Positions 2,719 through 39,789 of a stretch of DNA of 64,000 nucleotides are shown piece by piece; the stretch's first letter is position 1, and every line of letters begins with the position of its first letter. The DNA comes from an uncultured bacterium (GTDB taxonomy: Bacteria > Patescibacteriota > Patescibacteriia > CAIQCM01). The stretch covers positions 707,740 to 771,739 of the forward strand of contig OY970181.1 of the NCBI GenBank assembly GCA_963708045.1, given 5' to 3'. The translations under genes and the position numbers were made by a program. Below the pieces are notes generated by a model. The model had not been told where the DNA came from and searched no databases. It worked only from the letters and a program-made list of their open reading frames with translations.

Positions 2719-3710
2719 ATGCATTTGCTCGTGACCGGCGGCGCCGGATTTATTGGTTCAAATTTTACGCGCGAATGGCTTAAAAATCATCCTGCGGATC
2801 ATCTTACTGTTCTTGACGCGCTCACTTATGCCGGCAATAAAAAATATTTGCGCGGCGTTGACTATTCGCGTTTGTCTTTTATTCGCGGCAACATAACGAA
2901 TCCCGCGGCCGTGGCTTTTGCGATGAAAGAAGCTGATGCAGTCGTTCATTTTGCCGCCGAATCGCACGTTGACCGTTCTATTGTCGACCCGGCCGCCTTT
3001 TAAAAACCAACGTTTTTGGCACGCACGTTCTTTTGGAAGAAGCGCGCCGCCGCGAAGGACAGATTGTCCGTTTTCACCACGTTTCCACGGACGAAGTTTT
3101 TGGCGCTTTGGAAATTACCGAAGCGCGGCGATTTCACGAACTAACGCCTTATGCGCCAGGTAGTCCTTATGCCGCTTCCAAAGCCGCTTCCGACCACCTC
3201 TGTCGCGCCTACTTTAACACCTACGGCGTTCCCGTGACGATTACGCACTCGTCAAACAATTACGGACCATATCAACACCCAGAAAAACTTATTCCCACGA
3301 TAATTATGTCAGCGATGGACAACCGCTCGGTTCCCGTTTACGGCGACGGTCTCTATGTTCGCGATTGGATCCATGTGATTGACCACTGTCGGGCAATAGA
3401 AGCGGTAATGATGAATGGAAAAGTCGGCGAATCTTATTGCGTTGGCGGGCGAACCGAAAAGCCGAATATAGAAATTGTCCGGACGATTTTGGAAATTTTG
3501 AACCGTCCGCATTCGCTTATCTCGTATACTAAAGATCGCCCTGGCCACGATCGGCGTTATGCCCTTGATCCAACCAAACTGGAGCGCGAACTTGGCTGGC
3601 GGCCGCGCTGGTCGTTTGTGGATGGGCTAAGAGAAACGATTAATTGGTATAAATTTAACCGCAGCCTTTGGAGCGCAATGCCGGAGGAAATAAAATCTGA
3701 CATAAAATGA
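2719..3710 (+). pseudogene. rfbB: dTDP-glucose 4,6-dehydratase (rfbB) interrupted by a -1 nt frameshift near nt 3000 (or sequencing error)
   Basis: ORF 2719-3003 encodes N-terminus (MHLLVTGGAGFIGSNF...ESHVDRSIVDPAAF*). The next frame continues KTNVFGTHVLLEEARR...YAASKAASDHL...(YxxxK catalytic motif) to 3710. Junction gccttttaaaaaccaacg lacks one nucleotide relative to expected ...AAF-I-K-TN.... Confidence 0.7.
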
Positions 3711-5284: not shown

Positions 5285-5287
5285 TTT

Positions 5288-6166
5288 ATGCCGACGGGAA
5301 ACATTAAACACATTGGTTTTATAATGGACGGCAATCGTCGCTGGGCTAAGGGTAATGGTTTGCCGACTTTTGAAGGGCATCGGGTCGGTAATGATTTGGT
5401 TAAAAAAGTCGGGCCTTGGTGTTTGGCTCGCGGGATAAAGTATATTACTTTTTACGCTTTTTCAATTGAAAATTGGAAGCGCACCAAAGACGAAGTTGGA
5501 TATTTAATGGAGCTTTTGATGTCCGACATTACCAAAGAGTTGGATTATTTAACCAAGGACAATATAAGATTAAAAATAATCGGCCGGCGCGCCGACCTTT
5601 CTCCAAAACTGCAAAACGCGATTGCCGAAGCTGAAGAAAAAACCAAAAATTATTCCGCTGGCGTTATACAGCTCGCTGTTTCTTATGGCGGACGCGATGA
5701 GATTGTCCGTGCAGCCGTCAAGGCGGCTCTGGCTCAGGAAATTACCGAAGAGGGAATCGTAAAAAATTTAGACACCGCCGGAATCCCTGACCCTGATCTT
5801 ATTATTCGCACGTCGGGGGAGCAGCGCCTTTCTGGTTTTCTCACTTGGCAGTCAATTTACAGTGAACTTTTATTTTTAAATAAACATTGGCCAGATTTTT
5901 CCGAAGCCGATCTTGATGCGGCGATTGCTTGGTATTCTGAGAGAGATCGAAAGATACGGAAAATAGAAAACGGGGCACGGCGCTGTTGCGTCGTGCCCCG
6001 ATTGGTCGGCTGTGTCTACTTGGTTTTGGTGCCTAGAGCGGTGTGCGCAGTGGTGCCGTTTAAAGCGACTGACATTTGTATCATCGCTCTCTCTTTCATC
6101 ATAAACGGCCACCACCATCGCTTGCTCAACCGGTCAAGAAGTCCTTGGAAGTTCTTCCTGATCTGA
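5288..6166 (+). CDS. uppS: Undecaprenyl-diphosphate synthase (UppS); native C-terminus probably near nt ~5965, ORF reads through ~65 extra codons into foreign high-GC DNA
   Basis: DGNRRWA signature, RLSGFLTWQS...SELLF..WPDF; after ...AWYSERDRKIRK the reading frame continues across a 12-bp-stem hairpin (5973-6001) with no stop until 6166, overlapping a convergent ORF. Confidence 0.8.
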   Translation: MPTGNIKHIGFIMDGNRRWAKGNGLPTFEGHRVGNDLVKKVGPWCLARGIKYITFYAFSIENWKRTKDEVGYLMELLMSDITKELDYLTKDNIRLKIIGRRADLSPKLQNAIAEAEEKTKNYSAGVIQLAVSYGGRDEIVRAAVKAALAQEITEEGIVKNLDTAGIPDPDLIIRTSGEQRLSGFLTWQSIYSELLFLNKHWPDFSEADLDAAIAWYSERDRKIRKIENGARRCCVVPRLVGCVYLVLVPRAVCAVVPFKATDICIIALSFIINGHHHRLLNRSRSPWKFFLI

Positions 6167-6594
6167 CCTAGCTCTGTTTCAAGTTCAGCGCGCGACCTGC
6201 CGCTTTGAGATCCTTCGTAACTTTCGGTCGGGCGTATGGCGCCGGTGCGGATCTTATGCAAGAGTTCTCTCGCATCGCTAACCGTTTTTGCCACGATTTC
6301 GAGTCTATAAGAACTGTTGGAGCCGTCGTCGAAATCGAGCACCCCTTTCGCCGATCGCAGAGCGTAAGTTCCAGTTTCTCGCTCAACTCCAGGGGGCGTT
6401 GTAAAGATTGCGTGAACGGATACCTTATCAATGGCGCTGGTAACCCGTGGGTCAGTCCACGGATCAAGTTCGCTCTCACTATCAACCATGGTGTACCAAC
6501 GCCTGTCGGTGTCGGTTTTGATGTTGAGCCCTGGAATTCCATCGGCGGGTAGTTGTGTTCGGTCAATGTACGCGCGAATGCTTTGGATACTCAT
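6016..6594 (-). CDS. Hypothetical protein (192 aa), in a short region that looks higher in GC by eye
   Basis: Good SD (AGGAGAGAAACATG on minus strand at 6589-6606); non-repetitive globular-looking sequence; no recognisable family. C-terminal ~50 codons overlap uppS read-through. Confidence 0.5.
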   Translation of the reverse strand: MSIQSIRAYIDRTQLPADGIPGLNIKTDTDRRWYTMVDSESELDPWTDPRVTSAIDKVSVHAIFTTPPGVERETGTYALRSAKGVLDFDDGSNSSYRLEIVAKTVSDARELLHKIRTGAIRPTESYEGSQSGRSRAELETELGQIRKNFQGLLDRLSKRWWWPFMMKERAMIQMSVALNGTTAHTALGTKTK

Positions 6595-6773
6595 GTTTCT
6601 CTCCTTGGTTTTCGTGTCGCCTGGATTCCGTCGGGCTTACTGGACCCGTCCGTTCCGTGGGTTGACCGTGTTTGTGCACCGGATTTTTAGGCCGGATCTA
6701 AAAAATAATAGCTTAAATTGGGGTTATTGTCAAGCTCCTATGCCTCTATAGACAAATGATGTATGTTATAAAA

Positions 6774-6846
6774 GTAACAACTTTTAACTGTTAACTTTTA
6801 GGTTTTAGCAAGCCACTAACAGTTAAAAGTTAATAGTTAACAGTTG
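6774..6846. repeat. Intergenic heptamer-unit inverted repeat, family 4 (AACTGTT/AACTTTT ... AAAAGTT units)
   Basis: taacaacttttaactgttaacttttagg...ctaacagttaaaagttaatagttaacagttg immediately upstream of rarA start. Confidence 0.8.
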
Positions 6847-6848
6847 AT

Positions 6849-8096
6849 ATGTCCGATTTATTTGACTTAAAATTAGAACAAGAACTAAAGAAGTCCGCGC
6901 CGCTTGCTGATCGGATGCGTCCTGTTTCCTTGGACGACTATGTGGGGCAAGAAAAACTCATTGGGCCGGGCGCGACTTTGCGGACGCTGATTGATCGCGA
7001 TGAGCTTCCTTCAATGATTTTTTGGGGGCCGCCGGGAACGGGGAAAACAACTTTGGCACGCATTATCGCCAAACTAACGCGTTCGCGTTTTGAACAAGTG
7101 TCGGCGGTTTCTTCGGGCATTGCCGAATTGCGCCGCGTCGCGGACGAAGCTCGGGAAAAAAGAAAACTAACCAATACACGCACGATTCTTTTTGTTGACG
7201 AAATTCATCGCTGGAACAAATCACAGCAAGACGCTTTACTTCCCAGTGTTGAAAGCGGAATTATTACGCTTATTGGCGCGACGACCGAGAATCCGTCTTT
7301 TGAAGTTAACAGCGCCTTGCTTTCGCGCTCGCGCGTTTTTGTTCTTGAAAAACTTACCGCCGAGGATATTAAAAAATTGTTGGAGCGGGCGATTAAAAGT
7401 CCGAATGGACTGGACGGAAAGGTAAAAGTTGACGATCAAGCGCTTGATTTTTTGTCATACATTGCCGATGGCGATGCGCGCGTGGCTTTAAATTCTTTGG
7501 AAATTGCTGCTAAGGCTTTAAAAATTTCTAAGCGTCAAGTTTTAAAAGTAGAAGCGGTTAAATATGCGCTTGCCAAAACTCATTTGCGTTACGACAAAAC
7601 CGGCGAAGAGCACTACAACATTATTTCCGCCTTGCATAAATCAATGCGCGGCTCGGACGCTGACGCCGCTCTTTATTGGCTTGGGCGAATGCTTGAGGCG
7701 GGGGAAGATCCGCTTTATGTGGCGCGGCGTTTGGTTCGTTTTGCTTCGGAAGACGTTGGTCTTGCTGATCCGCAAGCGCTCGTTCTTGCTATGAGCGCGT
7801 ATAATGCCGCGCACGCCATTGGGATGCCCGAGTGTAATGTAATTTTGGCCGAAGCCGCCGCCTATCTGGCGACCGCGCCAAAATCAAACAAATTGTATGT
7901 CGCTTACGAAGCAGTGCAAAAAGACATTAGCGAACTTCCAAACGAGCCCGTGCCGCTCCATTTGCGCAACGCGCCGACCAAATTAATGAAAGAATTGGAC
8001 TATGGTAAGGATTACAAATATAACCCCGATTTTACCGAGCCGGTTAACCAAGATTATCTGCCGGAAAAGTTAAAAGGCAGAAAATATCTAAAATAA
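6849..8096 (+). CDS. rarA: Replication-associated recombination protein A (RarA/MgsA AAA+ ATPase)
   Basis: RMRPVSLDDYVGQE, Walker A GPPGTGKTTLA, Walker B ILFVDEIHRWNKSQQDALLP, C-terminal MgsA helical lid motifs. Confidence 0.9.
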   Translation: MSDLFDLKLEQELKKSAPLADRMRPVSLDDYVGQEKLIGPGATLRTLIDRDELPSMIFWGPPGTGKTTLARIIAKLTRSRFEQVSAVSSGIAELRRVADEAREKRKLTNTRTILFVDEIHRWNKSQQDALLPSVESGIITLIGATTENPSFEVNSALLSRSRVFVLEKLTAEDIKKLLERAIKSPNGLDGKVKVDDQALDFLSYIADGDARVALNSLEIAAKALKISKRQVLKVEAVKYALAKTHLRYDKTGEEHYNIISALHKSMRGSDADAALYWLGRMLEAGEDPLYVARRLVRFASEDVGLADPQALVLAMSAYNAAHAIGMPECNVILAEAAAYLATAPKSNKLYVAYEAVQKDISELPNEPVPLHLRNAPTKLMKELDYGKDYKYNPDFTEPVNQDYLPEKLKGRKYLK

Positions 8097-9305: not shown

Positions 9306-11113
9306 TGATTAAGAATTTTTCACGAAAAAAAAATTCTTTAGGCACGGTCGTTCGCGACCGTATTTTGGCTGGTCTCGCGGTTTTTATCGGGTTAGTTTGT
9401 CTCGTCCGCCTTTTTCAACTACAAGTTTTGGATGCTTCGTTTTATAAAGCTTTGGCCAGCGGCCAGCGCAATGTTTTTTCAAAATTAATCCCCGAACGCG
9501 GCGACATTTTGGTGCGCGATGCTGGTGGAAAAGAATATGCCGTCGCCGCCAATCGCGATATGTGGATGGTCTATGCTGATAATCGCAAAATAACCGACCC
9601 AGCCGCAACGGCCAAGGCGCTCGCGCCACTCCTTGTCGCGCCGGTTTTGGAAAAAGATAAAACACCAGAAGTAATTGTTGAAGAAAAAAAAGCAGCGCTG
9701 GCTACAAAAGAAGAAGAATTAAAAAAACGCTTGTCCGTTTCAACTAATGCGTATAATCCCTTGGCGCACGAATTGGATGACGTCGCTTGTACTGCTATTA
9801 AGTCGCTCGGTATCGCGGGAATTGAATTTACGCCGGAAAAAATTCGTTATTATCCCGATCAAAAATTTGGCGGCCAAGTGCTTGGTTTTTTTGGTTATGA
9901 AGGAAATGAAAAAGTCGGACGTTATGGGATAGAGGGCTATTGGGAAAAAGAGCTGGCTGGTACGCAAGGATTTTTAAAAAGCGAAAGCGATCCGCATGGC
10001 CGGACGATTACCGTTGCCAATACTTCTTTTCGCGAAAAGCAGGACGGCGCTGACCTTGTCCTCACGATTAATCGGACGCTTCAAGACGCTAGTTGTGGCT
10101 GGCTTGATGATTGGGTGAAACAACATGGCGCGAGCTCGGGTTCGCTCGTGATGCTGGATCCAAAAACCGGCGCGATAATGGCGATGTGTGGCTCGCCAAA
10201 TTTTGATCCAAATAATTATGAAAAAGTCGGGTCATCCGGCGATTACAACAATGCCGCCATTTGGAACGCTTATGAACCCGGATCGGTAATGAAAGCCATA
10301 ACCATGTCGGCGGCGCTGGATCAGGGCAAAGTAACCCCGACTACGACCTATACTGATTTTGGCGAACTTACGATTAACGGAAAGGTAATTAAAAATTCCG
10401 AACCAAATCCCTTTGGTGTTCAAACGATGATTCAGGTTTTGGATAATTCGCTCAACACTGGCGCGATTTTTGCGATGCGCCAAATTGGCGGCACGATGTT
10501 AAAAAATTATTTGTTCGCTTTTGGTTTTGGAAAAAAATTAGGCATAGAAACCGATACCGAATCGCCAGGAAATTTAGCCAGCCTTGACCAGAATCGTGAA
10601 ATTTTTGCCGCAACAGCCTCGTTTGGACAGGGGATTACGACCACTGTTCTTCAACTGGCTTCGGCTTACGGAGTAATGGCTAATGGTGGAAAGTTGATGA
10701 AGCCATATGTTGTTGATGAAGTTCGCAATTACGACGGGAAAATTGTAAAAACCGCGCCAAAATTAATTGGGCAAGCGATTTCCGAACACGCCGCCAATTT
10801 GATTACCGGTATGCTTGTTTCGGTGGTAAAAAATGGTCACGGCAAGCGTGCCGGCGTTCCTGGGTATCTTGTTGCTGGAAAAACCGGCACAGCGCAAATT
10901 CCGCGTATGGATGGCCTTGGTTATGAAGATAAGGATACAATCGGAACGTTTGCCGGCTATGCCCCAGTTTCCGACCCAAAATTTGTTTTGGTGGTGCGCG
11001 TTGACAGGCCGCAAGATGTTCAGTTTGCTGAAAGCTCGGCCGCGCCGCTTTTTGGCAAGATTGCCGCTTATACCTTGCAATACTTAGGCATTCCACCGGA
11101 TGATGTTAAGTGA
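9305..11113 (+). CDS. Penicillin-binding protein (FtsI/PBP2-type transpeptidase)
   Basis: N-terminal TM anchor, dimerisation domain, SxxK (GSVMK), SxN (LNTG) and KTGTA motifs. Confidence 0.85.
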   Translation: MIKNFSRKKNSLGTVVRDRILAGLAVFIGLVCLVRLFQLQVLDASFYKALASGQRNVFSKLIPERGDILVRDAGGKEYAVAANRDMWMVYADNRKITDPAATAKALAPLLVAPVLEKDKTPEVIVEEKKAALATKEEELKKRLSVSTNAYNPLAHELDDVACTAIKSLGIAGIEFTPEKIRYYPDQKFGGQVLGFFGYEGNEKVGRYGIEGYWEKELAGTQGFLKSESDPHGRTITVANTSFREKQDGADLVLTINRTLQDASCGWLDDWVKQHGASSGSLVMLDPKTGAIMAMCGSPNFDPNNYEKVGSSGDYNNAAIWNAYEPGSVMKAITMSAALDQGKVTPTTTYTDFGELTINGKVIKNSEPNPFGVQTMIQVLDNSLNTGAIFAMRQIGGTMLKNYLFAFGFGKKLGIETDTESPGNLASLDQNREIFAATASFGQGITTTVLQLASAYGVMANGGKLMKPYVVDEVRNYDGKIVKTAPKLIGQAISEHAANLITGMLVSVVKNGHGKRAGVPGYLVAGKTGTAQIPRMDGLGYEDKDTIGTFAGYAPVSDPKFVLVVRVDRPQDVQFAESSAAPLFGKIAAYTLQYLGIPPDDVK

Positions 11114-11200
11114 GGTGTTAGGTTTTAGGTATCAGGTGTTAGGTTTTAACATACGACCTTTGACCTGTAACCTTGAACCTTGCACCTTGAACCTAATAAC
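11114..11200. repeat. Intergenic heptamer-unit inverted repeat, family 3 (AGGTGTT/AGGTTTT ... AACCTTG units)
   Basis: aggtgttaggttttaggtatcaggtgttaggtttta...acctttgacctgtaaccttgaaccttgcaccttgaacctaa. Confidence 0.8.
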
Positions 11201-11203
11201 AAT

Positions 11204-12493
11204 ATGAAAAACCTTATTGAAAAAATATTGTCCGCGCTTGCAAGCGCGATCATAAAAAAGTATAAGCCGATGGTGGTCGCGGTTACTGGTTCGGCTGGTA
11301 AGACCTCGGCCAGAGAAGCGATTTACGCGGCGGTAAATACCGAGTTTGACGCGCGCGCTTCGCTAAAAAATTATAATAACGACCTTGGCTTGCCGCTTTC
11401 AATCATCAACGCTAAGTCGGTCGGAAAAAATATTTTTAGCTGGCTTAAAATTATTGCACGCGGCGTTTCGTTTATTGTTTTTTTGCGGCGTTTTCCCGGC
11501 GTTTTAATTTTAGAAATGGCGGCTGATCATCCGGGCGACCTCGCACGGCTCGTAAAAATTGCACCGCCGAATGTTTCCGTTATTACCTCAGTCGGTTCGG
11601 CGCATATGGAATTTTTCGGTTCCGAAAGCGCGATTGCCGAAGAAAAAGCAACCCTTGTTCATGCGCTGACCGTTGATGGCGTTGCTGTTTTGAATGCTGA
11701 CGATTCGCGGGTTAATGGTATGCGCTCGACTTGCAAAGGAAAAATTATAACTTTTGGAATAGACAATGTTGCCGACGTTCGTGCGACAAAAATTGAATAT
11801 CTTCGCGACACGCAATCGCTTGCGGTAACCGGACTTTGTGTTGAAGCCGCAATTAAAAATCAAAAAGTAAATTTTATTCTTCATGGTGCGATCGGAAAAA
11901 ATCATGTCTTGGCCGCGCTGGCTGGTTTGGCCGCTGCTTATGCGTTAAAAATAAAACCAGAAACCGCCGCGCTAAATTTGGAAAAAATAAAACTCGCCCC
12001 TGGTCGGTCGCATTTAATTCCGGGCATAAAAGAAACAATGATTATTGACGACTCATACAACGCTTCGCCGGCAACGGTTTTAAGTGCCTTAGTGGCGTTA
12101 AAAGATTATCCGGTCGTCGGAAACGGCCGACGCATTGCGCTTATCGGCGATATGCTTGAGCTTGGTGGCTATACCGAAACCGCGCATAAAAATGTTGGCG
12201 AAACGGCGGCAAGACTTGGTATTGATTTTTTGTACGGTGTTGGCGAACGAATGCACGACGCTTGCACCGCGGCGCGCGCCGCGGGAATGGGGGAGGAACA
12301 AATTATTCATATGGAAAATGCCGGCTCGGCCGCGCGCTTTCTTCAGGAACGTTTGCATCCAAACGACGTGATTTTAATTAAGGGCTCGCAAGGAATGCGC
12401 ACTGAACGCGCCGTCCGCGAACTAATGCTTGAACCGGAAAAAGCCGAAGAACTTCTTTGTCGGCAGGGGAAGGAGTGGGTGGATGGCACGTAG
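11204..12493 (+). CDS. murF: UDP-N-acetylmuramoyl-tripeptide--D-alanyl-D-alanine ligase (MurF)
   Basis: VVAVTGSAGKTS P-loop, Mur ligase middle/C-terminal motifs (DDSYNASP). Start moved to ATG 11204; upstream TTG lies inside the repeat. Confidence 0.85.
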   Translation: MKNLIEKILSALASAIIKKYKPMVVAVTGSAGKTSAREAIYAAVNTEFDARASLKNYNNDLGLPLSIINAKSVGKNIFSWLKIIARGVSFIVFLRRFPGVLILEMAADHPGDLARLVKIAPPNVSVITSVGSAHMEFFGSESAIAEEKATLVHALTVDGVAVLNADDSRVNGMRSTCKGKIITFGIDNVADVRATKIEYLRDTQSLAVTGLCVEAAIKNQKVNFILHGAIGKNHVLAALAGLAAAYALKIKPETAALNLEKIKLAPGRSHLIPGIKETMIIDDSYNASPATVLSALVALKDYPVVGNGRRIALIGDMLELGGYTETAHKNVGETAARLGIDFLYGVGERMHDACTAARAAGMGEEQIIHMENAGSAARFLQERLHPNDVILIKGSQGMRTERAVRELMLEPEKAEELLCRQGKEWVDGT

Positions 12494-12576
12494 CACGTGG
12501 CATGTGGCATGTGGCATGTGGCGTGTGGCACGTAGCACGTAGCGCGTGGCTTGTAGTACGTGATACGTAGTAGGTG
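12491..12576. repeat. Tandem heptamer array, family 2 (GCACGTG/GCATGTG/GCACGTA, ~11 units), overlapping murF stop
   Basis: tagcacgtggcatgtggcatgtggcgtgtggcacgtagcacgtagcgcgtggcttgtagtacgtgatacgtagtaggtgg; 7-nt periodicity; second copy at 19046-19092. Confidence 0.8.
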
Positions 12577-12604
12577 GTTACTGTGGAATTAATGAAAAAA
12601 TCTT

Positions 12605-12646
12605 TCGCATCACATTAAATCGCGATCGCGATTTAATGTGATGCGA
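12605..12646. repeat. 42-bp perfect palindrome centred on CGATCG
   Basis: tcgcatcacattaaatcgcgatcgcgatttaatgtgatgcga (perfect inverted symmetry). Confidence 0.85.
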
Positions 12647-12663
12647 GTAAATATTTGAATAAA

Positions 12664-12691
12664 CGAAAACCCTTGAGACACTCAAGGGTTT
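12664..12691. terminator. Bidirectional intrinsic terminator hairpin
   Basis: aaaacccttgagacactcaagggtttt: 10-bp GC-containing stem flanked by A-run and T-run. Confidence 0.6.
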
Positions 12692-12718
12692 TGCGGTTAA
12701 GAGGAAGTGACGGTTTGT

Positions 12719-13315
12719 TTATTTGTCCGGTAGAACGCCGGGGTGGGTGAAGCTGAAAAAGGCTTGGCCTGTTCTTTGGCTTATTTCCCCCCTGAGCGGT
12801 CCGACCGATATGCCGGGATAGACCGTGAAAATCTCCAGACTCCAACCACCCCCAATGCGCATGAAGTCGCAGGAAAAAGTCACGGCATAGGTGAGCATTG
12901 CTAAGTGATGCGTGCCTTGTTTGACCCTAAGCCCAGTACAGCTTCTGTTAAGGCCAAAGGGTTCAAGATCGTCAACTTCAAAGAGCGTGAGCGGCGCGGT
13001 TGAGGACCAGCCAACCTGACGAGAGTGGGTGACGGAAAAATACCTTTGCCGTTCACGGGAGCCGATGATGGCGTTGGTGATACTCGGCAATTCAGCGCAA
13101 AATCGCTGAACGAAATCTCCGTCGGCAAAAACTTCGTTAAAGTTGCGCCAAAGCAAGAAGTTGCCGGCAAGCGGTTCGCCACCTGGTCGGAAACAGGTGT
13201 TTCTAAGGCAAAGCTCAACAGTATCTCGACAGTAGACGGTTGTGTCGGCAAACCCAGGAATACGAAGGAACCGTGAGAACGCTACGTGTGATGGCATCGT
13301 GTGAATCCTTTGCAC
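12719..13315 (-). CDS. Hypothetical protein (198 aa)
   Basis: Long ORF in GC-richer DNA, divergent from 13541 gene; no recognisable domain. Confidence 0.45.
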   Translation of the reverse strand: MQRIHTMPSHVAFSRFLRIPGFADTTVYCRDTVELCLRNTCFRPGGEPLAGNFLLWRNFNEVFADGDFVQRFCAELPSITNAIIGSRERQRYFSVTHSRQVGWSSTAPLTLFEVDDLEPFGLNRSCTGLRVKQGTHHLAMLTYAVTFSCDFMRIGGGWSLEIFTVYPGISVGPLRGEISQRTGQAFFSFTHPGVLPDK

Positions 13316-13381
13316 GTTGTTACTGCCCCATTGTTAACTGTGGTAGCGGGCATCCGAAGATGATATTCTAACTCGCTGTTT

Positions 13382-13424
13382 TCGTCAAGGATCATTGACG
13401 AAACAGATAAAATATGATATAAAC
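13382..13424 (+). promoter_or_regulatory. Sigma70-like promoter (TTGACG-17-TATAAA) with near-palindromic operator tcgtcaaggatcattgacga overlapping -35
   Basis: tcgtcaaggatcattgacgaaacagataaaatatgatataaa; same operator recurs at 14819-14837. Confidence 0.55.
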
Positions 13425-13540
13425 TAACGTTGTTCTTTGACTGAAATTACGATCAGAATCAGGAATCTTTAGCTGAATTTTCGGCCGATGGTTCTTGATT
13501 CTGATTCATACCAAACCACAAAAATTGGACAGGAGCCGCT

Positions 13541-13915
13541 ATGATCAATGCATTCTTTTCACTCACGTCGCTTGTTGGTGGTATCAGTTCTGGGCGGTTT
13601 AGCCAGAATGATCTAGACACTGGTTTTTTCTGCCTTCTTCGGGAACGGCGGTTCGTGATGGATCAACCCGGGGAACTTCCTGGGACGGCTGAGGATTATC
13701 AACAAGTTGTTCGTGCGATTCAACAAGCTGAGAGTGATGGTCGTGCTCTTTGGTTTGATGGAATCCCAACCTACGGTCCGCTCTATGATTTTCTTCAGAA
13801 AAACGGTTTCCTTGAACTTGTTCAGGCAATCGGACGTAGGAGAGAAGATCGCTTGGTGTGTAGTGTCGTTCAAAAAGCGGCAATGAGTTTCAAAATCACG
13901 TTTATCTATTTTTGA
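13541..13915 (+). CDS. Hypothetical protein (124 aa)
   Basis: ORF following promoter/operator, 5'UTR contains inverted repeat atcagaatcaggaatc...gttcttgattctgat. Confidence 0.45.
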   Translation: MINAFFSLTSLVGGISSGRFSQNDLDTGFFCLLRERRFVMDQPGELPGTAEDYQQVVRAIQQAESDGRALWFDGIPTYGPLYDFLQKNGFLELVQAIGRRREDRLVCSVVQKAAMSFKITFIYF

Positions 13916-13927
13916 GTCGCGATTTCT

Positions 13928-13978
13928 TCACCCACCACAAAAGCATTCACTGCTTCCGTGGTGGGTGTTTTTGTTTTT
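13928..13978 (+). terminator. Intrinsic terminator (island terminator family)
   Basis: cacccaccacaaaagcattcactgcttccgtggtgggtgtttttgtttttt: 10-bp stem + T-run. Confidence 0.7.
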
Positions 13979-14020
13979 TAATTCTTCCAACTTTTTCCGA
14001 TCGGAAAAAGTTGGAAGAAT
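13979..14020. repeat. 42-bp perfect palindrome centred on CGATCG (copy 1 of 2 near-identical)
   Basis: aattcttccaactttttccgatcggaaaaagttggaagaatt; near-identical copy at 15581-15622. Confidence 0.85.
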
Positions 14021-14140
14021 TTAAAAATAGAAAGTCAAAGGAATTAAGTCTAATTCTTGACATAACCTCTCTGAAGTATCGGCAGGGAAATACGTGGTTC
14101 TTTGAGTTTAGAATGTGGGAAGTGATATAATAACGTCGTT

Positions 14141-14656
14141 ATGACGAAGTGTTGTTTTCGCACACAAACACCAAACCGTGCGGCGTTCACACTGGTTGAA
14201 CTTTTGGTTGTGATTGCGATTATTGGCTTGCTTTCAACAATCGCGGTGGTGGCTTTGGGTTCGGTGAGAAGGCAGGCGCGAAACACCAAACGGATTGCCG
14301 ATGTTAAACAGCTTGTAACAGCTTTTAGTTTGGGACTTGATGCCAATGGCACCTATCCGTCGTCTGGTGGCGATGTTTACGCCTGTATTGCTTCAACTTG
14401 TACCGCCAGTTGGAGTGGCTTTGCCCCCAACGAGATAGTTAACACCTTTTTTCAAACGTATATGGCAACCAAGCCAACAGACCCCAATGACAATAATTCT
14501 CGTTTGCAAGGCGGATATCTTTATAACGGACAAGACCCCTCCCTTGGAGGTGTTCCTGGAATAAATTACCTCCTTGAGCCGCCAGCCACTTGCGGAGTTG
14601 GGCAACTCATCGGAACGAACGCAAACTACGTTTGGTGTGGCGTTAAGCTTGAGTAA
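14141..14656 (+). CDS. Type IV pilin-like protein (class III signal peptide)
   Basis: N-terminal prepilin motif RAAFTLVELLVVIAIIGLLSTIAVVAL (conserved with the other pilins in this window); C-terminal Cys pairs. Confidence 0.7.
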   Translation: MTKCCFRTQTPNRAAFTLVELLVVIAIIGLLSTIAVVALGSVRRQARNTKRIADVKQLVTAFSLGLDANGTYPSSGGDVYACIASTCTASWSGFAPNEIVNTFFQTYMATKPTDPNDNNSRLQGGYLYNGQDPSLGGVPGINYLLEPPATCGVGQLIGTNANYVWCGVKLE

Positions 14657-14712
14657 GTGTTATTGGCACTCGTTGTAAACTTTTAGCTCAATACTCCACG
14701 CTAATGGATAAC

Positions 14713-14862
14713 TTTATAAATAGGGTCAGGTCTGATTTTAAATGTAAAAAAATTTTAGATTGAATGTTGGGGTTTTGGTTGACACATTAGGTGGCGCAGT
14801 GGGTATAGAACGCGGGGTTCGTCAAGGATCATTGACAAAGTGTTAAAAAACCGTATACTTTT
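14713..14862 (+). promoter_or_regulatory. Conserved ~100-nt upstream module (copy A) + operator cgtcaaggatcattgaca overlapping TTGACA-16-TATACT promoter
   Basis: tttataaatagggtcagg...ttaggtggcgcagtgggtatagaacgcggggttcgtcaaggatcattgacaaagtgttaaaaaaccgtatact. Confidence 0.55.
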
Positions 14863-14900
14863 TTTGACTGAAGAAACTCGGAAACAAAAGGGGGAAAAGG

Positions 14901-15455
14901 ATGAAAAATTTGATGTTCGTTTTGGTTGCGCTCTTTGCAATAAACTGCAGTTCGTCGGATGGTGGCAAAACGTCTTCGCCTGCGGGTGTGAACGCACCCG
15001 CTCTAATTTGCGGAAGCGATGTCTCTTGCGGAGGTGATCTTTCTGGGGAATGGCTCGTCACGGAAACGTGCATGAGCAAAGAATTTCGGGATAATTTTGA
15101 CAAACTTTCAAAGGGGAATTCTTACCAATCATGCGTTTCGTCGGCGGAAATGAAACTACTCTCGCCTGGTGTTGTGGTGACATTTCCGAATGGGAATTGG
15201 TTCACCAATGATAGTATCAAAATCGTTCTTGAGTATTCAATGTCAGAGGCTTGCCTGCAAAAGTACGGTAAGAATTGTGCTGTGATGGGAACAAATTTGG
15301 ACTGTTCGCTCACCAACAACGATCTCTGTACGTGTGCTACGATTCCAGAGGGAACGGAAGAACAGGAATCAATGCACAACTACTGCGTTCAGGGCGACAC
15401 GCTCGTATTTTCCACCGGCGTTGGCGTGGCTTTTTTTCTTACGCGGATGAAATAA
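14901..15455 (+). CDS. Cysteine-rich putative lipoprotein (184 aa)
   Basis: Strong RBS aaagggggaaaaggATG; signal peptide with lipobox-like LFAINC; ~12 Cys. Confidence 0.6.
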   Translation: MKNLMFVLVALFAINCSSSDGGKTSSPAGVNAPALICGSDVSCGGDLSGEWLVTETCMSKEFRDNFDKLSKGNSYQSCVSSAEMKLLSPGVVVTFPNGNWFTNDSIKIVLEYSMSEACLQKYGKNCAVMGTNLDCSLTNNDLCTCATIPEGTEEQESMHNYCVQGDTLVFSTGVGVAFFLTRMK

Positions 15456-15495
15456 AAGACAATACCAAACAGCGTAGGGTGCGACTTAATCTCAC

Positions 15496-15546
15496 ACCCG
15501 CGACAAAAGCACCTACTGCTTCTTTCGCGGGTGTTTTTGTTTTTGA
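15496..15546 (+). terminator. Intrinsic terminator (island terminator family)
   Basis: cacccgcgacaaaagcacctactgcttctttcgcgggtgtttttgtttttg. Confidence 0.7.
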
Positions 15547-15580
15547 ATTTTTTTGTATGTGATTATATTTTTATTTTTTA

Positions 15581-15622
15581 AATTCTTCCGACTTTTTCCG
15601 ATCGGAAAAAGTCGGAAGAATT
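15581..15622. repeat. 42-bp perfect palindrome centred on CGATCG (copy 2)
   Basis: aattcttccgactttttccgatcggaaaaagtcggaagaatt. Confidence 0.85.
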
Positions 15623-15637
15623 ATAATAGATGGAAAA

Positions 15638-15770
15638 TTTATAAAATATGGACAAGCTATATTTATGATAAAAATACCGAGATTGAATCTTGGGATTTTT
15701 AAGTGGCGCAATGAATATAGAACGCGGGGACTAAGTATCTTGACAAAATGGCCAAAATATAGTAAGAGTT
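15638..15770 (+). promoter_or_regulatory. Conserved upstream module (copy B) with promoter-like hexamers
   Basis: tttataaaatatggacaagctatatttatgataaaaataccgagattgaatcttgggatttttaagtggcgcaatgaatatagaacgcgggg...cttgacaaaatggccaaaatatagt. Confidence 0.5.
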
Positions 15771-15820
15771 CAGTAGCTGCTTAAAAAAGCAGCTCCTCTC
15801 AACATAGGAAGGAGCTCGGA

Positions 15821-16627
15821 ATGCAGACACAACACGATCAGACCAGGAGCGCTATTCCCTCCATTGCCACTAAATCTGTGGCATCCGCGAGATATGGTAT
15901 AGACAACCCGCCGCTATCTGAAGAATCGGCTGCCACGCGAATAGAGACTCTGGTTGGCGAAATTCAGGTCGTTGAAACAGACTTGGAGATGAGCAACCCC
16001 GAGACATATGCAGGTTTGGGAACCTATGCCGAGTGGCGCAAACGCGCGGTTAGTGCGCTCGGACACATAAAGAAGGAACTCAAGTTCCTGCGTCGATGGG
16101 TTGATCAACAACGTGTGGCGAAAAAAGCGGCCAAGCGCCAGGTCGCCGACGAGTCCGCCATCCGTAATTACGAAGGACTCGGCATTATCGCTCGCGGGAT
16201 CAAGGCTCGAGCAATCGAGTTGGCGGTGAAAATTGGTGGGGCGTATGAGGTGCGCTATAGAGAGTCCGTCTCGCCCCCTGATTTGCTAACAGCGATTGCA
16301 AGACGCACCGAGCTCGTCGCAATCAAGGAAAGTTTGGGGGATGCTTTTCAGGAAATAACGGCTGCGTGGACCAGTCATCCGTTGCGTCGTGAAGAGATGG
16401 GTGTTGCCAAGGCACCGCTCAATAAAATCCTCAAATGCGTTGAAAGGGAACTTGGTGTGATAAAGGTGTACATCGCTCAGAGTACACCTCGACAACCCAC
16501 TCCAGTTGCTGGATGGAAGACTATCTGCATTGGTTTTTTCGAGAGGATGCTCGAAAACGGCGCTGATTTAACTCAGGAAGAAGTGGCAGTATTGGTTTGG
16601 TTAAAAGCCACCAAGATGCCTGCCTAG
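15821..16627 (+). CDS. Hypothetical protein (268 aa)
   Basis: RBS aggaaggagctcggaATG; hairpin agctgcttaaaaaagcagct in 5'UTR; no recognisable domain. Confidence 0.5.
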   Translation: MQTQHDQTRSAIPSIATKSVASARYGIDNPPLSEESAATRIETLVGEIQVVETDLEMSNPETYAGLGTYAEWRKRAVSALGHIKKELKFLRRWVDQQRVAKKAAKRQVADESAIRNYEGLGIIARGIKARAIELAVKIGGAYEVRYRESVSPPDLLTAIARRTELVAIKESLGDAFQEITAAWTSHPLRREEMGVAKAPLNKILKCVERELGVIKVYIAQSTPRQPTPVAGWKTICIGFFERMLENGADLTQEEVAVLVWLKATKMPA

Positions 16628-16641
16628 ACGTCCACAACCCG

Positions 16642-16687
16642 CACCCGCGACAGAAGTATTCGTTACTTCTCTCGCGGGTGTTTTTTA
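16642..16687 (+). terminator. Intrinsic terminator (island terminator family)
   Basis: cacccgcgacagaagtattcgttacttctctcgcgggtgttttttaag: ~17-bp stem, one mismatch. Confidence 0.75.
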
Positions 16688-16761
16688 AGTTTTTTTTAAG
16701 GATTGACAGATGCTTTAAACTGGGTTGATATAGAAGAGCCATTTATGGGCGAGGAGGGAAA

Positions 16762-17532
16762 ATGAATCCTTATATAGGCATAACCGATTTCACCGAATCG
16801 AATCAAGTTCGTCGCATACTCGAAGTATTTCATACTGTTTTTCCTGATGGTACGAATTGGCGTCTGCATGTCGGCGTGATGATGAGTTACAAAACACTCA
16901 GAGGGTTGCCGACAAAGTGGCAAGCATCTTTTCCGGCCAAGGAAAAAATCGCCAGCATTTTCTTTTCTCATGAGGCCTATAACTGTCTGCACTACGCCGA
17001 CTACGACGCCAATCATGAACTGTCAAAAATCTTGAGTGAGGCGATTTGTTGGTGCGGGCGCGGATTAAACGCTGTTCAGCTTGATATGATCTGGCCTAAC
17101 CCCGGGGAAGTCGCAGAAGCAATTCATCGTTCACGCATAAACATTGAGGTCATTCTACAGCTTGGCGCAAACGCTCTGGCGGAAACAGGTGGTGATCCAG
17201 CTGTCACTGTGAACCGTCTTCGCGATTACGAAGGAGTAATCCACCGTGTGCTCATTGACAAGAGCATGGGTCGCGGGCTCGTCATGGACGCCAACGTGCT
17301 TCTTCCTTTCGTTTCCGCCATCCGACAACATTTCCCGACATTGGGCATAGGCGTGGCTGGTGGTCTGGGGCCAGGCACGGTCGAGGCGGCACAACCACTC
17401 CTTAGAGCTTTTCCTGATCTAAGTATTGACGCCCAAGGACGACTTCGTCCAAGTGGAAACGCTCTGGATCCAATTGATTGGGATATAGCCTCGGAATACC
17501 TAGTTCAAGCCGCCTCAATCATTAGAGAATAG
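16762..17532 (+). CDS. TIM-barrel protein resembling phosphoribosylanthranilate isomerase (TrpF-like)
   Basis: YIGITDF (cf. KICGIT), GLNAVQLDM (cf. LNAVQLHG), VLIDKSMGRGLVMD, IGVAGGLGPGTV (cf. LSGGLNPENV) pattern match recalled TrpF motifs; not verified by search. Confidence 0.4.
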   Translation: MNPYIGITDFTESNQVRRILEVFHTVFPDGTNWRLHVGVMMSYKTLRGLPTKWQASFPAKEKIASIFFSHEAYNCLHYADYDANHELSKILSEAICWCGRGLNAVQLDMIWPNPGEVAEAIHRSRINIEVILQLGANALAETGGDPAVTVNRLRDYEGVIHRVLIDKSMGRGLVMDANVLLPFVSAIRQHFPTLGIGVAGGLGPGTVEAAQPLLRAFPDLSIDAQGRLRPSGNALDPIDWDIASEYLVQAASIIRE

Positions 17533-17567
17533 ACTCTCAAACGAAGGAAATACGACCCTCGTTTCAC

Positions 17568-17607
17568 ACCCGCGACAGAAGTATTCGTTACTTCTCTCGC
17601 GGGTGTT
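17568..17607 (+). terminator. Intrinsic terminator (near-identical to 16642-16687)
   Basis: cacccgcgacagaagtattcgttacttctctcgcgggtgtttttgtttttt. Confidence 0.75.
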
Positions 17608-17652
17608 TTTGTTTTTTAATTTTTGTATATTGTAATTTAAATAGACGAAAAA

Positions 17653-17785
17653 TTTATAAATAGGATCAAGCTATGCTTCTGATAAAAAATACTGAGATTA
17701 AATCCTGAAATTTTTAAGTGGTGCGTTGGATATGGAAGGGGGGATTAAAGTCGGCTATTGACTTTTTGATGACTGCGAACTATTC
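17653..17785 (+). promoter_or_regulatory. Conserved upstream module (copy C) followed by TTGACT-17-TATTCT promoter
   Basis: tttataaataggatcaagctatgcttctgataaaaaatactgagattaaatcctgaaatttttaagtggtgcgttggatatggaagggggg...ttgactttttgatgactgcgaactattct. Confidence 0.5.
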
Positions 17786-17847
17786 TTTTGAATCCTTTTG
17801 GCAAGGCCGAAGGTAAAGTTCTGTAAACAAAAACAACGGGGGTTGTC

Positions 17848-18768
17848 ATGGGCTATTACGAAGAACGAAGACTCGAGCTTGCGCAAGAATTAGGTGAACA
17901 GGTAGCTTTAGTTGTCAAGATTGGAGATAGGCTGGTTCATGGGCGAGCTGTTCTTGGTGAGTTGGAACAAAAACACGCTCGGGTATCATGGTTTCCAGTT
18001 GCTGGTAATGTTGACGCGGCTGGATTGCGACTTACGGAGGCAAGGGAAAGGCTAGTCAAAGCGGTCGGGTATTTAGGGAATTGTGATCGTCAGGCGATTA
18101 ACCAAATGGACGTCTTGATTGACACGGCACGCCAGCGTTTGCTCCAGGCGAGCAACTGCATAGAATCGCTTACGGTTTGTCGCGATACACTTGCAGAACT
18201 AGAAAAAGGCTCGAGGCTTAACGTTCCAAGATTGTCTGAATTGTTAGTTGTGGCAAGTCGCTGTTCTCAAGATAGCGATATGACGGAGGTTAACAATTTA
18301 ATGCGTCAAACTAGTGACGAAGATGGCAAACAACACCCCGACCTTCTACTGATCGCTGATTTGCACGGTCGCGCTGAAGTGGCTCTAAATAGTATTTTGG
18401 CGAAGCGTGGAGATTCGCGAATGGTTGAATGGGAAACAAGGCGTCTTGGGAACGTTCAGTTTGTTGCGAGAATAATTATCAAACTCTTGGAGCAGTACGT
18501 GCTTGACCACTATGAGGCTTTTGTTCCTCAGCCGCCGGATCTCTCCGCCCTCCGAACGCTTCTCAGTTTGTCTGAGTTCGGGCCGCCACGACAAAATCTC
18601 AAAGTGCAGATGCAATATGCTGAGAGGGCATTGCGCGATGCTCGTGATAATCTCGTCAAGGCGGAAGCGGTGGGTGGTTGCTATGTCGGTGTGAAAGGGC
18701 GAACAAAAATGCAATATAACTTGGCCAGTTTGCACGGCGGCGATAATGCCGCACCAGATCCGCATTAA
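17848..18768 (+). CDS. Hypothetical protein (306 aa), predominantly alpha-helical-looking
   Basis: RBS acgggggttgtcATG; no recognisable domain; followed by hairpin cacccc/agggtg + T-run (18842-18872). Confidence 0.5.
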   Translation: MGYYEERRLELAQELGEQVALVVKIGDRLVHGRAVLGELEQKHARVSWFPVAGNVDAAGLRLTEARERLVKAVGYLGNCDRQAINQMDVLIDTARQRLLQASNCIESLTVCRDTLAELEKGSRLNVPRLSELLVVASRCSQDSDMTEVNNLMRQTSDEDGKQHPDLLLIADLHGRAEVALNSILAKRGDSRMVEWETRRLGNVQFVARIIIKLLEQYVLDHYEAFVPQPPDLSALRTLLSLSEFGPPRQNLKVQMQYAERALRDARDNLVKAEAVGGCYVGVKGRTKMQYNLASLHGGDNAAPDPH

Positions 18769-18964
18769 CCGAATGACTTAAGACAAACGACCTCGCCTGG
18801 TACGCCGGGCGGGGTTTTTCTTTATTTATAAAATACAAAAGACCACCCCGATTAAAGGGTGATCTTTTTTGCTGAGCCGACCTCGGTCCAAGTAGGCAAG
18901 CTAAGCTTGTCTTGTGGTAGCGAAGCTGAGCTTCGCCGTCATTCTTGAAACCGAGCTCTGCTCG

Positions 18965-19041
18965 GGTAGCCCCAACCGGATTTGAACCGGTGTATCCACG
19001 TTGAGAACGTGGCGTCCTAGGCCAGACTAGACGATGAGGCC
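18965..19041 (-). tRNA. tRNA-Glu (anticodon CUC)
   Basis: Reverse complement GGCCTCATCGTCTAGTCTGGCCTAGGACGCCACGTTCTCAACGTGGATACACCGGTTCAAATCCGGTTGGGGCTACC folds as cloverleaf: 7-bp acceptor with G1-U72 and U5-G68 wobbles, anticodon stem CCACG/CGTGG with loop TTCTCAA, T-arm ACCGG-TTCAAAT-CCGGT; strongly resembles bacterial tRNA-Glu D-arm (TCGTCTAG...AGGAC). Confidence 0.65.
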
Positions 19042-19045
19042 GTAT

Positions 19046-19092
19046 TGGCACGTGGCACGTAGCACGTGGCACGTAGTTTGTAGTCTGTGTTG
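19046..19092. repeat. Tandem heptamer array, family 2 (second copy)
   Basis: gcacgtggcacgtagcacgtggcacgtagtttgtagtctgtg directly abutting tRNA-Glu 5' end. Confidence 0.8.
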
Positions 19093-19186
19093 TTAAACAG
19101 AAAATATTATCACAATTTTAGAATAAAAAATCAATAGTCCCGTCGGCGTCGGCGGGACTATGTTGAGCGGGGAAGGGTGCGGCTAG

Positions 19187-19498
19187 TTAGTCGCCCAGTC
19201 CCTGTACTCGTGGCGGGTCGTTTGTGAGATGTGCTGTTCTGGGTACGCCGCTTCGCACTCTGACGCCTGATCTGATTCTCGGTCTTTTGCGGACAAGTTC
19301 TGTTGGCTCTGGTTCTTTCCATGTTTTTAAAATCAACAGAATGGCGAACAGTATTGAAACTAGGGGTAAACCGATTAGAGGCGCTAAGTCACCATATTGA
19401 ATGTTTTCCCAGACGATGCTTTTGGGTGTGTTTTGTTCAAGGTATAGCGTCGCGGTAAACGGTACGACTACTCCGATGATTAAAAGAACGTTTTTCAT
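19187..19498 (-). CDS. Small hypothetical membrane protein (~104 aa, 2 TM)
   Basis: Start chosen at ATG with SD GGGAGGAATCAAGATG; longer listed ORF N-terminus is unlikely. Confidence 0.5.
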   Translation of the reverse strand: MKNVLLIIGVVVPFTATLYLEQNTPKSIVWENIQYGDLAPLIGLPLVSILFAILLILKTWKEPEPTELVRKRPRIRSGVRVRSGVPRTAHLTNDPPRVQGLGD

Positions 19499-19579
19499 CT
19501 TGATTCCTCCCAATGTTTTCCGACAAATAAATTTATCACGCCGCGTTTTAGGCGTCAATGTTGACCGCAAAGCGCCGGC

Positions 19580-20932: not shown

Positions 20933-21592
20933 ATGAAGAAACTAGAGGTCAGAAAGGAAACAATTCTGGATTCTTTGGTTAGAGAATACGTAAAAACCGC
21001 CGAGCCGGTAAGTTCGCTGTACCTTTCGGAAAAAGCCGAGTTGGCGGTTTCTTCGGCAACGGTTAGAAATGAATTGGCCGATTTGGAAAACGAGGGGTTT
21101 CTTGTTCAGCCGCATACGTCCGCCGGCCGTATTCCAACCGAAAATGCTTACCGGTATTTTGTTGAATATTTGTCGCGGCCGCAAAAAAACGACAGCGTTT
21201 TTGTTGCTCGGCTGCAATCGTTTTTTAAAGAACGCGACGACGCCAAAGCCGCGGCCAAGATGCTGGCGGCCGAAACTAAGGAATGCGTTTTTGTTCTGTT
21301 TGAACCGAATGATACCTATTATACCGGACTGACTAATCTTTTTTCGCAGCCGGAATTTGGCGAGCGCGAGATTGCCTTAAATATTTCCGGCGCCCTTGAT
21401 CAGTTGGACGAAGCTGTGTCCAAATTAAAACACGAAGGCGGCGTTAAAACGCTTATTGGTCGCGAGTGTCCGCTTGATCGGCGCTCTTCAATTGTTTATG
21501 TGGGCGCTGGAAAGCGGATCGTCGGTGTTGTTGGGTTGGTGCGAATGGATTACGAAAAAATTATTGGGCTCTTAAATTCACTCAATAAATAA
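20933..21592 (+). CDS. hrcA: Heat-inducible transcription repressor HrcA (short form)
   Basis: AEPVSSLYLSEK...VSSATVRNELADLENEGFLVQPHTSAGRIPTENAYRYFV matches HrcA N-terminal wHTH; preceded by CIRCE. Confidence 0.85.
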   Translation: MKKLEVRKETILDSLVREYVKTAEPVSSLYLSEKAELAVSSATVRNELADLENEGFLVQPHTSAGRIPTENAYRYFVEYLSRPQKNDSVFVARLQSFFKERDDAKAAAKMLAAETKECVFVLFEPNDTYYTGLTNLFSQPEFGEREIALNISGALDQLDEAVSKLKHEGGVKTLIGRECPLDRRSSIVYVGAGKRIVGVVGLVRMDYEKIIGLLNSLNK

Positions 21593-21657
21593 CTGTTAAC
21601 TGTTAACTTTTAACTATTAGGTTGCTAAAAGTTAAAAGCTAAAAGTTAAAAGTTAAT
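21591..21657. repeat. Intergenic heptamer-unit inverted repeat, family 4
   Basis: aactgttaactgttaacttttaactattaggttgctaaaagttaaaagctaaaagttaaaagttaat. Confidence 0.8.
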
Positions 21658-22238: not shown

Positions 22239-22290
22239 AAAAACGGATTAGGTATTAGATATTAGAAATTAGATATTAATAATAAAATAT

Positions 22291-25621: not shown

Positions 25622-25712
25622 TTAAGAGGTTTCAGGTTCAAGGTTCAAGGTTTTAGGTGATTAACGTTACGACGTGCTACCTAACACCTAACACCTAAAA
25701 CCTTGAACCTAA
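25622..25712. repeat. Intergenic heptamer-unit inverted repeat, family 3 (second copy)
   Basis: ggtttcaggttcaaggttcaaggttttaggtg...cacctaacacctaacacctaaaaccttgaacctaaac. Confidence 0.8.
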
Positions 25713-39720: not shown

Positions 39721-39789
39721 AACATGAACCATGTACCATGAACCATCCGTTTGGTACATGGTACATGGTTAATGGTTCATGTAAAAAAT
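39721..39789. repeat. Intergenic heptamer-unit inverted repeat, family 1
   Basis: aaacatgaaccatgtaccatgaaccatccgtttggtacatggtacatggttaatggttcatg. Confidence 0.8.

Follow-up and report, generated by a model that had tools for sequence, protein, structure and literature searches.

Background

The insertion sequence (IS) IS30 of E. coli shows a dual target specificity, for palindromic hot spots or for its own repeats, and it is characterised by a junction of its two inverted repeats (IR-IR) and by a 2-bp target duplication (PMC9333248). Members of the IS30 family are enriched between syntenic gene pairs (PMC13548323), and some of them, as cited in the same paper, carry an outward -35 element that gives rise to hybrid promoters. 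Copies of a family member may also be lost; for the ISApl1-mcr-1 composite transposon, PMC5821093 describes a cassette left without the IS or with a single-ended remnant of it. Here we analyse a stretch of 64,000 nt, below called the window, from an uncultured bacterium of the Patescibacteriota (GCA_963708045.1, contig OY970181.1, positions 707,740 to 771,739 of the forward strand; positions below are counted from its first letter). Three open reading frames (ORFs) of a variable island in this window, at 14901, 15821 and 17848, are each preceded by a copy of a module of about 110 nt.

We find it likely that these modules are left ends of an IS30-family element without its transposase, each composed of the left terminal inverted repeat (IRL, the 3' ~30 nt) and the adjoining sub-terminal sequence. 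Most likely they are relic, or possibly non-autonomous, left ends, that is, debris of mobile DNA and not a new regulatory device. For the window this replaces a candidate new regulatory module by a transposon relic. The modules themselves are fairly ordinary, and the part worth following is the targeting seen in the clade of the parent element.

Results and discussion

A shared module in front of island genes

The sequence-only reading, an earlier description made from the letters of the window, had reported three shared upstream blocks together with a consensus. A profile of the three copies, run with nhmmer over the whole window, recovered them on the plus strand at 14701-14821 (A), 15626-15733 (B) and 17641-17748 (C) with E-values of 1e-25 to 1e-28, and both the positions and the consensus were right; apart from A, B and C nothing in the window scored below E 0.03. 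Formal alignment gave pairwise identities of 69% (A-B), 64% (A-C) and 78% (B-C), all above the 60% line which that reading had drawn for its own claim. The similarity of B and C was thereby borne out, but at 78% identity "nearly identical" was too strong a description.

Judged from shuffled sequences, the number of matches to the 3' core TAAGTGGCGCAnTGnnTATAGAACGCGGGG expected by chance is 0. A looser core pattern added copy D, a degenerate 3' core at 14094-14113 which precedes a pilin-like ORF at 14141. There is a possible fifth trace near 13340-13380, where the match is not significant; the sole matching part beside it is a spacer/-35 segment at 13381-13412, which resembles 14818-14848. Copy A has a unique 11-nt insertion that contains the TTGACA noted earlier. 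The similarity between the modules ends at the tip of a repeat, ...GCGGG(G), and the core is as diverged between the copies as the rest of the module.

Homology to the left repeat of an IS30-family element

We scanned a degenerate core pattern over 185,579 GTDB genomes. The scan resulted in 26 matches, mostly in metagenome-assembled genomes (MAGs) of Patescibacteria/Uhrbacteria, with a few in MAGs labelled Methylomirabilis or Gammaproteobacteria. Most of them lie within 30-140 nt of a contig end, and the core therefore appears to belong to a multi-copy repeat. An ORF starting MRGQPLTLYEREKIE... begins about 85 nt upstream of these cores on the opposite strand, and where the contigs continue it is found to be a transposase of 321-337 aa (NCBIfam NF033563 'IS30 family', E 1e-70 to 1e-73) with the domains HTH_38 and rve. 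The elements from these other genomes measure 1048-1120 bp and have imperfect terminal repeats of 26-28 bp. Their far end carries CGCATAGTCAACTTAGCAATGCACCAC, and because its inner CAATGCACCAC is shared with the reverse complement of the core, we take the core as the IRL. Target duplications of 3 bp were seen at four of the insertions, L031 (TTA), L034 (TAG), L041 (ATT) and L042 (TTG), and were not seen at L017, L018, L028 and L032.

In the window, the last ~30 nt of each copy, GTGGCGCAaTGaaTATAGAACGCGGG, are homologous to this IRL. A profile made from the IRLs of the other genomes only gave significant matches in the window exactly at B, D and A, all on the plus strand and within the island (E-values in Table 1), and the core positions that are invariant in the clade (GTGG, C9, TAGA) are kept in these three copies. 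Further, solo left ends were found elsewhere, at L005, L022, L024 and L027, with the same promoter spacing and 40-80 nt of recognisable sub-terminal IS sequence; such relics therefore seem to be a recurrent outcome.

The junction of two IS30 inverted repeats acts as a promoter. Joined with a 2-3-bp spacer, the ends of the elements from other genomes would read TTGACT-N17-TATACT, from TTGACT plus 5-6 nt, the 2-3 bp, and 9 nt plus TATACT; a TTGATT...TAAACT variant also occurs. Thus composed, a -10 element in the left repeat and a -35 element in the right repeat would make a promoter at the joined ends, as predicted from the sequences. Such an arrangement agrees with the IR-IR junction and the 2-bp target duplication of IS30 (PMC9333248). 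On the reverse strand of the window cores, TATACC (A), TATATT (B) and CATATC (C) are retained at a distance of 9 nt to the tip, and the TATAGA of the sequence-only reading is the reverse complement of this inward -10 element of the IRL.

The same Patescibacteria-type IS30, again next to promoters, was observed on short contigs of a MAG labelled Candidatus Methylomirabilis (L001, L002, L014, L020, L021 and L025), and the element was also seen on short contigs of MAGs labelled Gammaproteobacteria (L004, L008, L012, L026 and others). Its presence in MAGs of unrelated phyla suggests binning contamination or horizontal spread. In addition, identical copies of a P0234-type IS (L031-L040) share a left flank but differ in the right one from sample to sample (L034 versus L035; L039 versus L031 and L037), which indicates recombination between IS copies or rearrangements at the strain level.

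Position of the parent element relative to promoters

A TTGAC-type hexamer begins 15-16 nt past the IRL tip in 23 of 28 matches from other genomes and in window copy A. For the 15-nt class (22 sites from other genomes together with copy A) the consensus of the flank is N15-TTGACA-N10-TTnTGnTAnnnT, a full promoter with an extended -10, and the 15 bases between the tip and TTGACA show no conservation. More divergent members, gathered by means of their transposases (44-60% identity) and having IRL tips ending in ...ACTGC, ...TTGGG and ...TCGGC, represent five other sub-lineages; 12 of their 13 further distinct sites showed 15-16 nt followed by TTGACA, N17 and TAnnnT, the rplJ promoter being one of the 12. 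Across the sub-lineages the -35 to -10 spacing is N16-18 and the promoter is directed away from the IS. Among the first 12 loci the adjacent gene was divergent from the transposase gene in 11, and the far flank of the IS is often a terminator. The empty site of L031, when reconstructed, reads hairpin-T7, insertion, 12 nt, TTGACA.

Copies within one MAG differ from the first base past the tip, hence the promoters are target DNA and not cargo of the IS. The fixed distance argues for a mechanistic choice of target rather than mere survival of harmless insertions, as far as the sequences tell. We lean towards the view that this Patescibacteria clade of IS30 integrates 15-16 bp upstream of sigma-70-type -35 boxes in a fixed orientation, either by direct readout of TTGACA or by docking on promoter-bound RNA polymerase. 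It should be noted that the transposases have an ordinary domain set; a sigma-70 region-4-like domain was considered and rejected, with only one faint match (E 0.06). We also considered target choice by mimicry, the promoter being taken for a right repeat, and rejected it because TTGAC is neither oriented nor spaced as this would require.

Taken over six or more sub-lineages, the insertions point to an IS30 clade which settles beside promoters with base-pair regularity. In the compact genomes of Patescibacteria, insertion at the side of a promoter is a plausible safe-site strategy, and the insertions are a ready marker for promoters in organisms where these are essentially unmapped. If the targeting is mechanistic, a simple DDE transposase would have its choice of target tied to a transcription signal. 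Such promoter-proximal targeting may be new; a literature search of incomplete coverage brought up no description of IS30-family members that target a site at constant distance ahead of the -35.

The modules in the promoter-side slot

The window modules occupy the slot of the parent clade in the same orientation, the order being terminator, module, 11-15 nt and -35. The clade of the parent IS is of frequent occurrence in Patescibacteria. We suggest that the parent IS would insert between an upstream terminator and the next promoter, with its left tip 15-16 bp upstream of the -35 and with its transposase gene pointing away from the promoter. That the modules stand directly before island genes, each by a different promoter, would then be due to this terminator-to-promoter insertion. 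The 5' ~75 nt of the module would come from the sub-terminal region of an IS variant specific to the lineage. The copies may have arisen by insertions followed by loss of the IS body, by the spread of one relic through recombination among mosaic intergenic regions, or by both, and today they are presumably inert apart from possible side effects. These could be the outward -35-like TTGAGT of copy D, targets for insertion directed by inverted repeats, and homology for rearrangement. If this holds, decayed ends persist close to promoters, where they are able to donate a -35 or to bind transposase.

The sequence-only reading had also placed promoter-like hexamers in the block. TATAGA, and TTGACA in copy A, are indeed present, but the actual -35 and -10 elements are not part of the block and follow it after 11-15 nt (Table 1), and the 15, 11 and 14 nt between the tips of A, B and C and the -35 are unrelated in sequence. 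As the -35 boxes begin past the repeat tips, the modules are upstream of the promoters and outside the transcripts.

Their constant position just upstream of -35 boxes, along with the retention of the clade-invariant core positions in A, B and D, would also be expected if the module were a host cis-regulatory region, an operator or UP/enhancer element of co-regulated island genes, with the likeness to an IS end being convergent or borrowed by the IS. We regard this as improbable, since true IS30 elements of 1.1 kb, flanked by target duplications, have this motif as their terminal repeat, the core has diverged among the copies as much as the remainder, and the motif occurs neither in the syntenic region of the relatives nor at the window's other promoters. 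An origin as an UP or enhancer element, one of the proposals of the sequence-only reading, does not agree with the sequence adjoining the -35, which is G+C-rich without an UP-type A/T tract; the 20 nt beside the -35 consist of the G+C-rich repeat tip, ...TATAGAACGCGGGG, and an unconserved spacer. A side effect of the module on the promoter is possible. By eye, a sigma-54 promoter was rejected on the spacing of GG and GC.

A position upstream of the predicted -35 also makes it very improbable that the module is part of a transcript, be it a small RNA or a structured leader, the latter as had been proposed. Copy B alone folds better than its shuffles (z -2.8) and contains, at 15677-15693, a small hairpin with a run of T after it, but copy C folds worse than shuffles and the z-scores of single folds on both strands are inconsistent. 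RNAalifold gave a consensus energy of -1.96 kcal/mol with a positive covariation term, from three sequences with little power for covariation, and Rfam had no match to the modules at gathering threshold or at E <= 1. The leader RNA with covarying structure was accordingly given up. A tRNA-like origin of the GTGGCGCAGTGGG... motif was rejected as well, ARAGORN finding two real tRNAs only.

In copy D the geometry differs, in that an internal TTGAGT, an 18-nt spacer and TGaTATAAT (14102-14131) stand directly before ORF 14141. The -10 ends 9 nt before the ATG and no Shine-Dalgarno sequence is present in 14126-14143. From these letters we infer that this prepilin-like ORF plausibly has a hybrid promoter, with an mRNA that is nearly leaderless. 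ORF 14141 may be translated from a leaderless mRNA, as predicted.

Points for and against a left-end relic

A transposase was absent from the window, as the best tblastn hit with the L017 transposase had E 5.7 and the island ORFs had no IS30-type domains. No right repeat (IRR) was found in the window for the modules by an inverted-repeat search, by a profile of five IRRs from other genomes (nothing below E 1) or by a gapped scan. The module termini thus show a homologue of the left repeat only, where the elements in other genomes have both.

Several observations weigh against the left-end reading. The 5' ~75 nt of the modules showed no significant similarity to the sub-terminal IS regions from other genomes, in pairwise tests or with a profile; short colinear blocks shared with left ends from other genomes were CAAGCTATGC with the P0221-type (uncorrected p about 0.002) and AC(C/T)GAG. 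No full-length IS with the IRL variant GTGGCGCA...ACGCGGGG was found in the GTDB, metagenome and viral scans; the GTDB scan had no GTGGCGCA variant, the metagenome scan gave two matches of the generic type and the viral scan gave none. Copy C is weak against the IRL profile. The four or five copies are all confined to 5 kb and the remainder of the 64 kb has none, a clustering which simple promoter targeting leaves unexplained. Finally, A, B and C begin at nearly the same 5' point in three unlike surroundings. Three separate decays would account for this less well than a single relic that was duplicated, or a discrete unit that moves; the shared boundary suggests that a relic was spread through recombination between the mosaic spacers or that a mobile mini-element has gone unrecognised.

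The latter leads to a reading of the module as a derivative of the kind of a miniature inverted-repeat transposable element (MITE), a non-autonomous unit moved in trans by a transposase elsewhere in the genome and aimed at promoters. It would account for the same left and right boundaries after the 3' end of a gene (A), a palindrome (B) and a terminator (C), for every copy being in the canonical target slot, and for a unit of ~110-145 nt as two IS ends with the untranslated left region. The missing right repeat speaks against it, however, and the ends of the module are not linked by an inverted repeat. On the left side of A an IRR-like stretch (14674-14699) has a lower score than chance matches elsewhere in the window, and the 64-78% identity of the copies speaks against recent movement. 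Target duplications were not identifiable, the modules having an undefined left boundary at which none can be read. Both terminal repeats around a short interior together with target duplications, as in a MITE, were not found, and we consider this reading unlikely.

Two candidates for a missing repeat were discarded. An IRR-like 23-mer, CGCATCACTTAGCAATGCTCACC, at 12893-12916 on the minus strand within ORF 12719-13315 has a 12-nt exact match to L017, but chance alone would give ~0.6 of these, and no remnant of a transposase was seen near it. As for the terminator hairpin, taken as a stand-in for the repeat, it has only CCCGCG and TATTC in common with the IRL; as its stem evolves by compensatory changes we treat it as a terminator.

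The variable island and its intergenic regions

The island spans about 6.5-7 kb (12.5-19.05 kb) between murF (11180-12493) and tRNA-Glu/yidC and consists of single-gene units, each made up of a sigma-70-like promoter, a ribosome-binding site, an ORF and, at its end, a conserved terminator hairpin that runs into a stretch of T. Between the genes, blocks of four types are combined in mosaics: terminator (T), palindrome (P), module (M) and spacer/-35 block, the last being common to A and the promoter at 13381-13412. The terminator family has four members of 40 nt (13929-13967, 15494-15534, 16642-16681 and 17566-17606), which are 63-94% identical and close unrelated island ORFs; in the copy at 13929 the stem is kept through compensatory changes from CGCGA/TCGCG to CCACCAC/GTGGTGG. 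The near-perfect 52-nt palindrome AATTCTTCCGACTTTTTCCGATCGGAAAAAGTCGGAAGAATT occurs twice, at 13976-14027 and 15575-15626, with 94% identity, and the second copy looks inserted between terminator and module B when compared with C. Rfam gave only generic hairpin models for the palindromes, weak or below threshold. The palindrome may be a small palindromic mobile element.

Table 1. Modules and neighbouring features in the window
Feature	Position	Strand	Description
Module A	14701-14816	+	~85-nt AT-rich 5' part and IRL-like core 14785-14816; tip 14816; IRL profile from other genomes E 2.6e-3
Module B	15619-15728	+	5' part and IRL-like core 15695-15728; tip 15728; IRL profile from other genomes E 8.6e-5
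Module C	17634-17743	+	5' part and most decayed IRL-like core 17712-17743; partial match to IRL profile from other genomes, E 28
Copy D	14093-14119	+	IRL-like core alone, GTGGTTCTTTGAGTTTAGAATGTGGG; IRL profile from other genomes E 2.7e-4
Promoter-like site, ORF 14901	14832-14859	+	TTGACA-16-TATACT; begins 15 nt past the tip of A
Promoter-like site, ORF 15821	15740-15768	+	TTGACA-17-TAAGAG; begins 11 nt past the tip of B
Promoter-like site, ORF 17848	17758-17786	+	TTGACT-17-TATTCT; begins 14 nt past the tip of C
Hairpin terminator and T run	15494-15534	+	conserved; closes the preceding ORF
Terminator hairpin	17566-17606	+	directly upstream of module C
52-nt palindrome	15575-15626	.	between terminator and module B
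tRNA-Glu(CTC)	18965-19041	-	right border of the variable island

By its MurF homologues the source, a genome of 1.19 Mb, belongs to the Patescibacteria. We compared the murF-yidC interval, which in the window covers 12494-19579 and holds ORFans, with that of two relatives. In the closest relative, L029 (81% MurF identity), the gap at 3133-6753 contains a helix-turn-helix protein and a large serine recombinase. In L030 (68% MurF identity) it is reduced to 1.1 kb (11287-12454), with an inverted tRNA-Glu and two partial repeats of the tRNA-Glu 5' part. The module and the IRL-like core were absent from this interval in both relatives. The murF-yidC interval is a variable integration hotspot around tRNA-Glu(CTC), and the location in a hotspot island may explain the clustering of four or five copies, with none at other promoters of the window. 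The island proteins had no Pfam, NCBIfam, PHROG or PADLOC assignment beyond the prepilin-type signal of ORF 14141, and ORF 15821 in particular is an ORFan. We therefore flag 12.5-19 kb as an ORFan-rich island, shaped by mobile DNA, at a tRNA-Glu hotspot.

A row of genes that each have their own promoter and terminator, placed at a tRNA-Glu hotspot where the closest relative has a large serine recombinase, recalls a gene-cassette array, and the module might then be an integron-like or other site-specific recombinase site for cassette exchange. We give this hardly any credence, as no island ORF has an integrase or recombinase domain, the module lacks attC-type dyad symmetry and lies on the 5' side of the genes, and its motif is accounted for by the IS30 IRL. 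Of the three functions proposed in the sequence-only reading, a recombination site nevertheless came nearest: the 3' motif is homologous to an end recognised by a transposase, but it is not an integron-like site.

Tandem repeats of period 7 were also observed, with 3.6-9.6 copies and a different 7-nt unit in each array. In the window they lie at 6817-6849, 11113-11194, 12484-12562, 19046-19076, 21590-21656, 22247-22278, 25679-25703, 39717-39746, 51172-51238 and 63309-63340; those at 12484-12562 and 19046-19076 are arrays of the heptamer TGGCACG and flank the island. Most of the arrays fill short gaps from stop to start codon. Outside the window such arrays were seen at L017 4813-4941 and at L027 370-400 and 1190-1259, and in L017 the array makes a 60-nt hairpin by the right end of the IS.

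Comparison with known systems

The elements from other genomes resemble IS30 of E. coli in their NF033563 transposase (HTH_38 and rve) and their terminal repeats, to the left one of which the window core is homologous. They differ in target: IS30 goes by preference to its own repeats or to a palindromic hot spot, while insertions of the Patescibacteria clade all face one way and stand 15-16 bp ahead of TTGACA. The window copies differ further in having neither transposase nor right repeat.

ISAba125 and IS4351 are examples of ISs bearing outward -35 elements. Copy D is like these in that its repeat holds a TTGAGT 18 nt before a TGnTATAAT of flanking DNA, whereas the promoters downstream of A, B and C are complete without the IS end. 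In ISApl1-mcr-1, loss of IS30-family copies likewise leaves remnants. There, two ISs bracket one resistance cassette on a plasmid, while the window relics are left ends of ~110 nt which precede several unrelated ORFans of a chromosomal island.

Promoter/stem-loop (PeSL) cassettes of T4-type phages are repeated terminator-promoter units that flank small unrelated ORFs, and the island is similarly a mosaic, recombination-prone region of repeated intergenic units. PeSLs are however not transposon ends, and the window island shows no phage genes.

In yeasts, Ty3 and Ty1 integrate at Pol III genes and Tf1 at Pol II promoters, and in bacteria group IIC introns are directed to terminators. The IS clade would be like these in choosing a safe site that a transcription signal defines, with distance and orientation constant. 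The enzymes and mechanisms are unrelated, and tethering of the clade to the transcription machinery is a hypothesis. If the clade does aim at promoters, this would be a bacterial DNA-transposon counterpart of the promoter-directed integration of yeast retroelements.

Having no transposase and only one repeat, the window copies are neither ISs nor MITEs but most likely fragments of an IS30-family element, and the parent clade works as a normal IS30-type element, its target being the unusual part.

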